A stretch of DNA of 64,000 nt. Origin: Deltaproteobacteria bacterium. Its GTDB lineage: Bacteria > Desulfobacterota_D > UBA1144 > Nemesobacterales > CSP1-2. Both the position numbers and the translations under genes were made by a program. The stretch covers positions 1,369-65,368 of the forward strand of contig JACPIY010000050.1 in NCBI GenBank assembly GCA_016187835.1, in the 5' to 3' direction. Shown one piece after another: positions 9,552 to 39,938 of the stretch (positions are counted from its first letter, which is position 1; each line of letters opens with the position of its first letter). The notes beneath the pieces were generated by a model, which worked only from the letters and a program-made list of their open reading frames with translations, had not been told where the DNA came from and searched no databases.

Positions 9552-9566
9552 TGGCATAGTTTTTGC
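9552..9566 (+). promoter_or_regulatory. sigma54 -24/-12 promoter
   Basis: TGGCATAGTTTTTGC, identical to 14610-14624. Confidence 0.65.
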
Positions 9567-9686: not shown

Positions 9687-9815
9687 CGACAAGTGTTTAA
9701 CCGGAGTTGATATTATTAAAGCTAAGTTTGCGGGTTATTTTCTCTCAATGAGATGGAAATGATACGGAACAACTGGCTTAAGGTTTGGGAATATCATAAA
9801 GCTAGGAGAAATAAA

Positions 9816-10238
9816 ATGAAAAAGCACGCTATGAATCTATCACGGAACAGCTACTCCAATTCAACCATAGTCATACTAAAATGGAGTGAGGTACTCGAAA
9901 GCGCCTTTGATTACTACTATGCCGACTATGTCCCTGCCTGGGCTCTGAGAGAAACCCCTTTTAACAATACGGGAGACAAGCTCTTTATTTCAAAAAAGAA
10001 CGAAGAGTGGGTTAGCTGGGAAAAAATTGACTTGTCAGACCGGCCCGATGTGGCAACCCTATTTGACCTGCTTCCGGACTTGCCCAAGGACGAAGAATAC
10101 TGGAAGGTGGTGCGTGAAATTAAAAACAGCGGAATCGAAGACGCTGAGGATTATTTCTGGGAAAATATGTTTTCCTATAAGCAATCAAACGAAGTCAATG
10201 TGCATGGAAGAACTTACAAAATCGAGTGGGAAGCTTAA
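9816..10238 (+). CDS. Hypothetical protein (140 aa, acidic/aromatic)
   Basis: AGGAG RBS before the ATG at 9816; no recognised motif. Confidence 0.65.
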   Translation: MKKHAMNLSRNSYSNSTIVILKWSEVLESAFDYYYADYVPAWALRETPFNNTGDKLFISKKNEEWVSWEKIDLSDRPDVATLFDLLPDLPKDEEYWKVVREIKNSGIEDAEDYFWENMFSYKQSNEVNVHGRTYKIEWEA

Positions 10239-19127: not shown

Positions 19128-19802
19128 TTCCCTGAATCCTTGCCTCTGGATGGGAAGTAGGGTCTGGAGGGAGGTTTTATCCGGTCTCCTCGTAACCTAC
19201 CTCAGGTCCGCACGGTTCCCTAAAAATTCTCGCTCTAGATCGCTACCTTGCAACCCTGTAGTAATTTTCCTGATTGTCGCTCTTAAGGCAATTGATTTCT
19301 TATTCCTTCTTCTTATATTCAAACAGGTAATTATCGTGTGTTTGATGATAGTTATAAAAAATGATAAATAAGGGGCAGACTCATTAGTGTTGCTAGTGGC
19401 TTTTTCTCGATGTCAGCCGCATGGTCAAGGTAGCAACGAGCAAGTATGTTCTGAGCTTGACGAAGGAACTCCTTGCCTACACGTTCTTAACCTATCTATT
19501 AAATCTAACAAATCAACCACGATAATGACTACAGAAGGGTTTTCCTCTTAAATCAAACATACGTTAATTAAACCGTGTCAAAAAGGAGAATTGCTATAAC
19601 TACGATCGGTCTTGTAGTACCCTTCTGGAACAATATCACGGAGGTTGAAGTAATTGAGATAGCGCAGATTCACCTATAATTATTTTCCAGCTTAAATCCT
19701 CTGGTGAAGTTGTAAACAAGCTAATCGAGAACTCGTATTAGAGTTAAAGCGATTATAAAAATGAAAACCAGGAAAGGAACCTACTAGGTTATTCTAAAGC
19801 TA

Positions 19803-20177
19803 TTAATCTGTAAGCCACGTTAGAAATTCACCATAAGAATCGAAATAATAACTGCTTTCGTCCCCCGATGAGGGAACTTTTATTCTCGCTATTTCTTTTT
19901 CAAGTTTCTCAAATAAGTTATTAGGCTTTAAATCCTTATACTCTGAACTCCCCCAGGGTCTAAACATTCCTTCCTCCCCCCTTACGTTTATATGTCCGTT
20001 TGCAAAAATGGCAATGTAACTACTTTTGTTTTTGAAATAGAAGAATGCTTTTCCGTTAAGCTCTCTTTTTCTTAAAAGTCTCGTAATATACTTTGGGTCA
20101 TACTTATTTCCTGGGTTTTCTTCATCAATAGGCTTTGCGAATCTATAATAAAAGTGATGAATGAGTTGATTTATCAT
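19803..20177 (-). CDS. Hypothetical protein (124 aa) coupled to the sigma factor gene
   Basis: Its ATG overlaps the sigma factor TGA (ATGA); no recognised motif. Confidence 0.55.
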   Translation of the reverse strand: MINQLIHHFYYRFAKPIDEENPGNKYDPKYITRLLRKRELNGKAFFYFKNKSSYIAIFANGHINVRGEEGMFRPWGSSEYKDLKPNNLFEKLEKEIARIKVPSSGDESSYYFDSYGEFLTWLTD

Positions 20178-21361
20178 TCAATAAAATCCCTGAGTAAAAT
20201 TCCTACTTCTAGCTGTTTGAGTTTTCTAAGGGCGCGCCTCTCGATCTGTCTTATACGTTCCCTAGTAAGCCTGTAGTGATTCCCAATCTCATCAAGCGTG
20301 TATGAACTATCAAAACCAATTCCAAACCTCATCCTTAAAATTTCTTCTTCTCTATCGTTGAGATTAGAGAGTGCTTCCTCTATTTTTTCACTCATTGTAG
20401 CCTTTGCAATAAGAGAATCTGTCGAAAGGCTGCTGTCAGGTATAAAATCAATCAGAGTGGTCCTATCATCATCCATGTTTGTACTCGGCGCATCAAGGTA
20501 AATCATACTCGTTGTGGTTGCGTTCATCACCTTTTTTACCTTTTGAACAGTGAGACCGGATTCATGTGCAATTTCGTCAATATCCGGAGTCTCACCATTT
20601 TCGTTCTGGAGCATATTGGTCGTCTTATAAACCTTGTTTGCCTGCTCAAGGACTCTAATCGGCACTCTTATAACCCTGGTTTGATCAAAAAGAGAACGAG
20701 AAATGCTCTGGATGATCCACCAAGAGGCATAGGTTGAAAATCTGTATCCTTTAGAATGGTCAAACTTTTCCACAGCCTTAATAAGTCCAATGTTTCCCTC
20801 TTGGATAAGGTCGGCAAGCGGAAGACCTCGTCCCATGTACTTTTTAGCTATGCTTATAACCAGCCTGAGGTTAGCCTTTACAAACCTGTCTTTAAAGGTT
20901 TTTGCTTTCTTTGAATAAGCCCTCAGAAGAGCGGATAGTCTTTGTATTCTTATTGGTGAAATGTAAATCCCATTTTTAGGTTTATTTACAGGATTTTTTA
21001 ATCTTTTTGAATGTCCATTATTAGAACAATTACAAACGGAGATTTTTCTAAACCCATTTTTGGCTTGCTCTGCGGCTTTATCAAGCAGGGTTCTTATTTG
21101 CTTAGCCTTTGCTTCGTATTTCTTTATTTTTATTGAAATCTCAACCTCATCGCTTGGTCTAAGAAGGGGTTCTGTCCCAACTTCTTTAAAATAAGACTGG
21201 AGAACCCTGTAGTCATCCTCTGAAATTGTCCTGTGACCATTCTCACCTGTGGAGCTGTTTTCCTCTTGAGCAAATGCTTCATTTTGGTTAACCACACCAT
21301 CTTCTTCAATTATTTTCTCAATGGAAAAAATGTTAAGTGCTTCCAGGTTATTTTGTGCCAT
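20174..21361 (-). CDS. Alternative sigma70-family factor (RpoD/RpoS-like, no region 1.1)
   Basis: ANLRLVISIAKKY, DLIQEGNIGLIKAVEKFD, FSTYASWWI, TRERIRQIE; GGAGG RBS before ATG 21361. Confidence 0.92.
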   Translation of the reverse strand: MAQNNLEALNIFSIEKIIEEDGVVNQNEAFAQEENSSTGENGHRTISEDDYRVLQSYFKEVGTEPLLRPSDEVEISIKIKKYEAKAKQIRTLLDKAAEQAKNGFRKISVCNCSNNGHSKRLKNPVNKPKNGIYISPIRIQRLSALLRAYSKKAKTFKDRFVKANLRLVISIAKKYMGRGLPLADLIQEGNIGLIKAVEKFDHSKGYRFSTYASWWIIQSISRSLFDQTRVIRVPIRVLEQANKVYKTTNMLQNENGETPDIDEIAHESGLTVQKVKKVMNATTTSMIYLDAPSTNMDDDRTTLIDFIPDSSLSTDSLIAKATMSEKIEEALSNLNDREEEILRMRFGIGFDSSYTLDEIGNHYRLTRERIRQIERRALRKLKQLEVGILLRDFIE

Positions 21362-21388
21362 TTTACGCACCTCCGTGAAATATTTGTT

Positions 21389-21403
21389 GCAATGTCTATG
21401 CCA
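21389..21403 (-). promoter_or_regulatory. sigma54 -24/-12 promoter upstream of the sigma factor
   Basis: Minus strand TGGCATAGACATTGC, 27 nt before the start codon. Confidence 0.7.
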
Positions 21404-21657
21404 ACAAAGTAGATACACTTAACCCTCTGATATTATTTATAAAAGAGAAGTTCTACATAACCTTATCAACATTTTTGGGCAGGAATGAAGCATTAAATAA
21501 CAAAATTTGTCAGAAGACTTCGAAGTTTAATTCGATGCTTTCAAAGCTTGACTTCAAGATAAGAAGGTATTAAGTTTTTTATAGATTTGATAGATTATAC
21601 AAGTGTTAAGATCAACAACAATTCTTCCTAGCTTTTCTTAAGAGTTAGAGCCTTGTT

Positions 21658-39923: not shown

Positions 39924-39938
39924 GCAAAAATGATGCCA
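39924..39938 (-). promoter_or_regulatory. sigma54 -24/-12 promoter upstream of the carbonic anhydrase
   Basis: Minus strand TGGCATCATTTTTGC, 38 nt before the ATG. Confidence 0.65.

Follow-up and report, generated by a model that had tools for sequence, protein, structure and literature searches.

The DNA analyzed here, referred to below as the window, is a stretch of 64,000 nucleotides from the genome of a Deltaproteobacteria bacterium (GenBank assembly GCA_016187835.1, contig JACPIY010000050.1, positions 1,369 to 65,368), and its minus strand encodes an alternative factor of the sigma-70 family, whose gene overlaps a 124-aa open reading frame (ORF), here named orfX (Table 1). At a rough probability of 0.78, we propose that the two genes form an operon transcribed by the sigma-54 RNA polymerase, that the operon constitutes the link between sigma-54 and a sigma-70-type factor in a regulatory cascade, and that it belongs to a wider regulon. 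An earlier reading of the letters alone (the sequence-only reading) had already suggested such a cascade, and its suggestion is now backed by the presence of rpoN and of genes for enhancer-binding proteins (EBPs) in the genome, as well as by the conservation of the sigma-54 box, a distal palindrome, and an IHF-like site.

The -24/-12 element TGGCATAGACATTGC is separated from the ATG of the sigma gene by exactly the 27 nt (21388-21362) that had been claimed for it, and the GGAGG reported ahead of the gene is likewise in place. With the sequence TGGCAT-N5-TTGCA, its GG and GC 10 nt apart, and the correct orientation toward the gene, the element has the makeup of a sigma-54 promoter, and the predicted start would give the mRNA a leader of ~16 nt. 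Orthologs of the sigma factor with 51 to 81% identity are present in relatives of three families of one order. Among the 18 orthologous loci that were compared, 14 have a sigma-54 box 40 to 57 nt before the ATG; of the remaining four, one is cut by a contig end, and three represent a derived duplicate subclade in a single genus. An upstream alignment with MAFFT, which takes in the 14 loci with a box and has the box in 14/14, contains only four conserved blocks, i.e., the palindrome, an A/T tract with the IHF-like site, the box, and the Shine-Dalgarno sequence, the last appearing as a GGAGG/GAGG-type purine-rich block before the ATG in most of the aligned orthologs.

The box, the IHF-like block, and the palindrome are retained in the families f1, f2, and f5 while their flanks diverge. 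The palindrome TGACAAATTTTGTCA is found with at most two mismatches in 13 of the 14 box-bearing loci, ~105 to 120 nt further upstream, and the copy of our own genome, TGACAAATTTTGTTA, begins 109 nt ahead of the box start. The IHF-like block is situated after the A/T tract and matches ATCAA-N4-TTA exactly in several relatives; the site of the locus, TATCAGAGGGTTA, was likened to WATCAANNNNTTR, which we take to be the IHF consensus. The palindrome lies within the 80- to 150-bp range of an upstream activating sequence (UAS), with the IHF-like block between it and the box, and the binding of a protein to it is predicted. Together, the candidate enhancer, the putative bend site, and the -24/-12 box make up a textbook three-part enhancer-dependent promoter that is kept across families. 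Since this architecture has persisted over family-level divergence, sigma-54 control of the sigma gene is very likely.

The genome is equipped accordingly. The sequence-only reading depended on the existence of an rpoN gene, and an intact one is present (400 bits versus a cut-off of 277), together with 18 PF00158 (sigma-54 interaction domain) matches, at least 11 of which represent full-length EBP genes, and three genes of the HU/IHF family. The motif TGGCAYN5TTGC occurs five times in the window versus 0.14 times expected from dinucleotide shuffles, a 35-fold excess, and no shuffle gave five copies; the four boxes outside the locus are listed in Table 1. In the 2.86-Mb assembly (41.5% G+C), the extended motif TGGCAYN5TTGCW is present in 46 copies versus ~5 expected by base composition (~10-fold), and nearly all of them are intergenic and precede an ORF with the same orientation. 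Of the 15 sigma-70-family genes in the genome, the one at our locus alone is preceded by a sigma-54 box; no such box was found within 900 nt upstream of the other paralogs.

It is extremely improbable that the box is a chance match and that the sigma gene is read from an ordinary sigma-70 promoter or one of another alternative sigma factor. A fortuitous motif would have to be reconciled with its retention in all of the aligned loci despite diverged flanks and with its 35-fold overrepresentation in the window, and a search of the minus strand across the upstream gap of 296 nt (21362-21657) scored no sigma-70-like promoter. Evidence in favor of this explanation comes from genus g2, where the box-bearing copies (L014, L016, and L050) have CGTCTAA, resembling a promoter element of extracytoplasmic function (ECF) sigma factors, between palindrome and box; moreover, a g2 copy without a box (L015/L053) has GGGGAAT-N14-CGTCTAA, and other promoters can therefore drive members of the clade.

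The palindrome leads from the locus to a set of further promoters. In the own genome, the 400 nt upstream of 174 box candidates were scanned, and the palindrome (at most three mismatches) is located 79 to 146 nt upstream of 11 boxes, including that of the sigma gene, versus ~0.6 expected in this interval from the density further upstream; only two further matches were found elsewhere in the scanned 400 nt. The promoters preceded by the palindrome include those of a type IV pilin, two GGDEF cyclases (including a REC-PAS-GGDEF protein), an MshEN-REC protein, a PAS protein, a TPR protein, an AMP-binding enzyme, a 90-aa ORF, and an unannotated 161-aa ORF within the window. As the palindrome precedes 10 other sigma-54 boxes, the sigma gene is one output of a larger regulon. 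In the relative G002, the combined palindrome-plus-box pattern gave seven matches versus none for a reversed control, and two of them precede orthologs (53 to 54% identity) of the TPR and REC-PAS-GGDEF proteins of our genome. The palindrome-plus-box unit can be regarded as a conserved regulon signature because it also precedes these orthologs. Judged by its predicted members, the regulon probably serves a surface or cyclic di-GMP (c-di-GMP) lifestyle.

Alternatively, the palindrome could be the operator of a different regulator, e.g., a repressor or a CRP/FNR-like protein, that merely accompanies sigma-54 promoters. No EBP gene adjoins any of the sites examined, which would fit such an operator. 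However, 11 promoters have the site at 79 to 146 nt, with just the two matches elsewhere, a conserved IHF-like site lies between palindrome and box, and the geometry is that of a classical enhancer, too distant for a repressor to occlude the polymerase. We consider the operator explanation quite improbable.

Regarding the activator, a truncated EBP on contig C24 was considered as a member of a palindrome-driven operon and ruled out, as queA intervenes on the other strand. This protein (C24:3-524, L029) is nearly identical to one encoded at C12:30688-31929 (L073); both are AAA+ proteins with a sigma-54 interaction domain that start with the ATPase domain, they have no receiver, GAF, or PAS domain, and inspection by eye showed no Fis-type helix-turn-helix (HTH). 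On C12, where the copy is full, this ORF and the next one run into a stretch with a resemblance, judged by eye, to a class III nucleotide cyclase. The C12/C24 pair represents an atypical EBP architecture. At C83:67400-69530 (corresponding to L031:2305-4428), downstream of the MshEN-REC gene with the palindrome-driven promoter, a CheA-like kinase appears to be broken up into several short ORFs with HATPase and CheW-like pieces; the apparent split may reflect frameshifts or assembly errors.

The product of the first gene has Pfam regions 1.2 (residues 54 to 82), 2, 3, and 4, all above cut-off, and the proposed lack of region 1.1 was borne out by the absence of a Pfam region 1.1 match at an E value of ≤0.01. 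It scores below the cut-offs of the RpoD C-terminal equivalog TIGR02393 (278.1 versus 354 bits) and the RpoS equivalog TIGR02394 (253 versus 378.7 bits); with 296.5 bits, it also falls short of the cut-off of 800 of the model NF041931 for MzaA, which serves as sigma factor in the anti-phage system MZA and with which it shares only the sigma-70 domains. Its best PDB matches are SigA/RpoD, and the RpoD of the genome is encoded by a separate 528-aa gene on contig C71 (357.1 bits) with an intact WWIRQAITR motif. Domain content and model scores characterize the protein as a group-2-like paralog distinct from both RpoD and RpoS. In a quick IQ-TREE phylogeny, the 18 orthologs form one clade with an SH-aLRT support of 100, apart from nine paralogs of the own genome and RpoD, so that the phylogeny agrees with a distinct alternative factor.

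The genome encodes ~10 RpoD-like paralogs of 380 to 425 aa, and the others are 48 to 55% identical to the sigma factor of the locus. The divergence of region 2.4 emphasized by the sequence-only reading is evident in an HMMER alignment with solved primary sigma factors, in which WWIIQSISR corresponds to WWIRQAITR. Ile217 replaces the Arg of WWIRQ, and this position is occupied by I, H, N, K, or Y among the paralogs of the genome; within the sigma-54-controlled clade, most members have Ile there, whereas Thr is found at four of 18 loci, among them the derived duplicates. It is plausible that the change in region 2.4 alters the recognition of the -10 element. No conserved coupled small ORF was found at the other sigma paralogs of the genome. 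In-frame stop codons are present in the paralog at C85:2710-3714 (TAG) and in a second RpoD-like gene, C7:730-1470 (TAA). An ECF-like -35/-10 pair, GGGGAAT-N13/14-CGTCTAAAT, was noticed at C42:12580 (-), C50:8107 (+), and C83:54201 (+), as well as in the relatives' loci L020, L025, and L015. It precedes operons of a LuxR-type regulator and an orfX paralog, the sigma paralog at C83:54506, and the box-less duplicate of the locus sigma gene in genus g2, and it may define a second-tier promoter class.

In the cascade that we propose, an EBP of the NtrC family would bind the palindrome ~110 nt upstream, and the IHF-like bend site would bring it to the closed complex at TGGCAT-N5-TTGC. ATP hydrolysis would then open the promoter, and transcription would start near position 21377. 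The resulting short-leader mRNA would be translated into the 395-aa group-2-like sigma-70 paralog and, by termination and reinitiation at the ATGA, into the 124-aa OrfX in amounts similar to those of the sigma factor. The latter, with regions 1.2 to 4 and Ile at the position of the WWIRQ Arg, would steer the core polymerase to second-tier promoters.

The overlap of the sigma TGA with the ATG of the second gene was found as described, the final codons ATT GAA TGA sharing 4 nt with the orfX start. The conservation of the downstream ORF could also be established: at six loci in four genera, the sigma gene is followed by an ortholog (54 to 92% identity) whose start overlaps it by the same ATGA. 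By this conservation, orfX is a real gene. The orfX family is very small, as a profile search among 1.84 billion representatives gave 30 clusters. Within the phylum (120 species genomes), the window's family was sampled with 14 genomes, 7 of which have homologs, the own genome aside; one further genome with a homolog belongs to a second family.

The statement that the ORF lacks a recognizable motif withstood searches of Pfam, NCBIfam, and PADLOC, none of which gave a match, and of PHROGs, which gave a marginal one only (E = 0.018); no usable match was found in the ESM Atlas. AlphaFold2 produced five models from a 45-sequence alignment, with a mean predicted local distance difference test (pLDDT) score of 83 to 84.5 and residues 22 to 124 mostly above 90. 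The modeled order of elements is alpha-beta3-alpha-beta2-alpha. Foldseek searches of PDB and BFVD returned nothing at E ≤ 0.001, and VIA-align of two models against 48,161 PDB representatives gave best Z scores of 3.3 and 3.7. Even the latter is unusually low because models without a Foldseek match typically reach a Z of 7 to 8. The profile and structure searches thus place OrfX in no curated family. HSP33, Sm, VC0508, and MotI were rejected as fold relatives, as best Z scores of 3.3 to 3.7 do not represent a meaningful match. A PilZ-like identity, considered in view of weak MotI and YcgR rows, was dropped, since the family alignment shows no conservation of the RxxxR and D/NxSxxG motifs.

One profile match raised the question of whether OrfX could be a strongly diverged anti-sigma-factor antagonist of the STAS type, like SpoIIAA/RsbV. 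The putative anti-sigma antagonist TM1081 (2ka5_A) is the only PDB profile match at E ≤ 10 (E = 0.035, 17 bits, 51 residues), but its score is marginal and the alignment begins in the His tag of the chain. Furthermore, no STAS chain was among the best 50 of the 48,161 representatives for the two confident models (listed Z, 2.3 to 3.7) or in the Foldseek results, Pfam gave no STAS match, and no partner-switching kinase is encoded nearby. Because the fold searches disagree with the profile match, STAS was kept as a weak rival, and we consider it very improbable.

The genomic context of the family is informative about its role. Paralogs of orfX are located directly 3' of LuxR/GerE-type regulators in three genomes, one is placed directly before an ECF sigma gene and behind a sigma-54 box, and two follow the gene of a small secreted protein, likewise behind a sigma-54 box; three operons with orfX paralogs carry such boxes. 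The distant homolog P0036 is a REC-orfX fusion. The N-terminal 20 residues vary by context: sigma-coupled members begin with MI-Q-..-FYY-F, and the LuxR- and ECF-linked ones have an [IV]Y[KR]WIQKKLG extension. From these associations, we infer that OrfX may be a protein-binding output module acting on HTH factors of the sigma-region-4/GerE type. That it modulates its sigma partner, or HTH regulators of the sigma-region-4/LuxR type in general, is our preferred, though tentative, proposal, to which we give somewhat less than even odds. A more far-reaching version is on the unlikely side. In it, orfX would found a lineage-restricted family with a new fold; its members would bind region-4/LuxR-type HTH factors via partner-specific N-terminal peptides, would serve as modules of the anti-sigma or co-activator kind, and would for the most part be under sigma-54 promoters themselves.

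Several observations weigh against an enhancer-driven sigma operon with a dedicated partner protein. The support for the sigma-54 operon consists of comparative sequence evidence throughout, and the predicted leader of 16 nt is short. Scanning of 11 EBP loci revealed no convincing palindrome at the EBP genes' own promoters; moreover, none of these EBP genes is adjacent or forms an operon with a member of the regulon. orfX trails the sigma gene in four genera only, and L043 to L047, L051, L052, and L055 have no coupled ORF; because many sigma orthologs lack it, orfX is an accessory rather than a required part of the cascade. Some orfX paralogs adjoin the gene of a small secreted protein or stand alone, which makes the case for a strict partnership with transcription factors weaker.

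The last two points also speak for orfX being a passenger, i.e., an independent effector of the regulon such as a small signaling or binding protein that is co-transcribed with the sigma gene and has no action on its product. Most orthologous sigma loci do without it, and no similarity to known anti-sigma families was found. Conversely, the ATGA overlap is kept in six loci, the association with HTH factors is recurrent (a group-2-like sigma, three LuxR/GerE regulators, and an ECF sigma), and the fusion to REC is typical of output domains. The passenger explanation is a serious one and falls only somewhat short of an even chance.

Table 1. Coordinates of the features at the sigma-orfX locus and of related elements. 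Positions are those of the window unless contigs are named.
Feature	Position	Strand	Remarks
Sigma-70-family gene	20174..21361	-	395 aa (P0001), from the ATG at 21361
WWIIQSISR motif of the sigma factor	20696-20722	-	residues 214-222
orfX	19803..20177	-	124-aa ORF (P0002); conserved small alpha/beta protein (predicted) of a lineage-restricted family without annotation
ATGA stop/start overlap of sigma gene and orfX	20174..20177	-	points to translational coupling, as read from the sequence
Shine-Dalgarno GGAGG of the sigma gene	21370..21374	-
Predicted transcription start	21376..21378	-	from the usual sigma-54 geometry, 12 nt past the C of the -12 GC
Sigma-54 -24/-12 element TGGCATAGACATTGC	21389..21403	-	TGGCAT-N5-TTGC
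A/T tract and IHF-like site TATCAGAGGGTTA	21420..21445	-	between UAS and box; conserved in the upstream alignment
Candidate UAS TGACAAATTTTGTTA	21498..21512	-	one mismatch from the perfect palindrome TGACAAATTTTGTCA
Further sigma-54 box	2068	+
Further sigma-54 box	9552-9566	+	palindrome-like site 87 nt upstream, three mismatches
Unannotated 161-aa ORF	9753-10238		behind the box at 9552 (+)
Further sigma-54 box	14610	+	weaker palindrome-like site, four mismatches
Further sigma-54 box	39924-39938	-
RpoD-like paralogs	contigs C5, C81, C86, C83, C22 (two), C7, C87, C85; window 20174-21361

Between orfX and a heptosyltransferase gene, there is a gap of ~675 nt (19128-19802) with no Rfam match and only short plus-strand ORFs without family matches. 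On the minus strand, no intrinsic terminator scored behind orfX; Rfam gave no match anywhere in the window. With respect to the assembly, a repeat of ~30 nt, CGAAGCAATCTGACAAAAGGTGTCAT, is present in at least 25 copies in the own genome, often less than 200 nt from contig ends and in inverted pairs. Copies are located at many contig ends, e.g., those of C4, C5, C12, C19, C29, C42, C48 (position 69625), C53, C57, C58, and C73. The repeat is probably the terminal repeat of an insertion sequence or a miniature inverted-repeat transposable element that breaks the assembly.

A cascade from sigma-54 to a sigma-70-family factor is of a known kind; new here are the example itself, an uncharacterized candidate partner protein with a possibly new fold, and a candidate regulon. 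A full-text literature search for Dadabacteria in combination with sigma factors found nothing related. Cascades of this type are well studied in few organisms, with RpoN-RpoS of Borrelia as the model. In the Rrp2-RpoN-RpoS pathway of Borrelia burgdorferi, the gene of an alternative sigma factor is directly transcribed from a sigma-54 promoter that is activated by an NtrC-type EBP (PMC3037356, PMC11109971, PMC4014564). Our locus is alike in that a -24/-12 promoter is located directly upstream of an alternative sigma-70-family gene. It differs in the nature of the sigma factor, which is one of ~10 lineage-specific RpoD-like paralogs and no RpoS, and in orfX, the coupled second gene, which has no Borrelia counterpart. 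The promoters differ as well: Borrelia Rrp2 is not known to have a DNA-binding domain or to require an enhancer, whereas at our locus a distal palindrome, which is conserved, and an IHF-like site accompany the promoter.

In the flagellar hierarchies of Vibrio, Pseudomonas, and Legionella, sigma-54 and an EBP control FliA (sigma-28), and the P6 promoter of E. coli rpoH is sigma-54 dependent. These targets are group 3 sigma factors with known regulons and anti-sigma factors such as FlgM. In contrast, the target in our locus is group-2-like, and the genes predicted to be co-regulated encode a pilin, c-di-GMP enzymes, and signaling proteins. The sigma factor resembles the group 2 sigma factors of cyanobacteria and actinobacteria, given its regions 1.2 to 4 without region 1.1, its closest structures among the primary SigA/RpoD factors, and its multiple paralogs. 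It scores below the cut-off for the cyanobacterial RpoD/SigA subfamily (275.8 versus 384.5 bits) and deviates from group 2 in the replaced Arg of WWIRQ, which is Ile in the clade of the locus and H, N, K, or Y in other paralogs. We know of no group 2 sigma factor that is sigma-54 dependent.

The locus represents a second, independently evolved example of such a cascade in a poorly known phylum, and its candidate regulon establishes a tie to type IV pili and c-di-GMP. The Arg position of region 2.4 is fixed in primary sigma factors and variable in RpoD-like paralogs, and ~10 paralogs that differ at this one position, an unusual expansion for a genome of 2.9 Mb, are a natural set for studying the divergence of promoter specificity. 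Small modulators of sigma factors include the anti-sigma factors RseA, RsbW, and FlgM, the sigma-S assembly factor Crl, Rsd, and AsiA of phage T4, and coupling of the ATGA type is typical of pairs of sigma and anti-sigma factors. OrfX is comparable to these proteins in its small size and its predicted co-expression with a sigma factor, but no similarity in sequence or fold to RseA, RsbW, FlgM, Crl, Rsd, or AsiA was found. If OrfX does bind the sigma factor with which it is encoded, it would represent a new class of sigma modulator.

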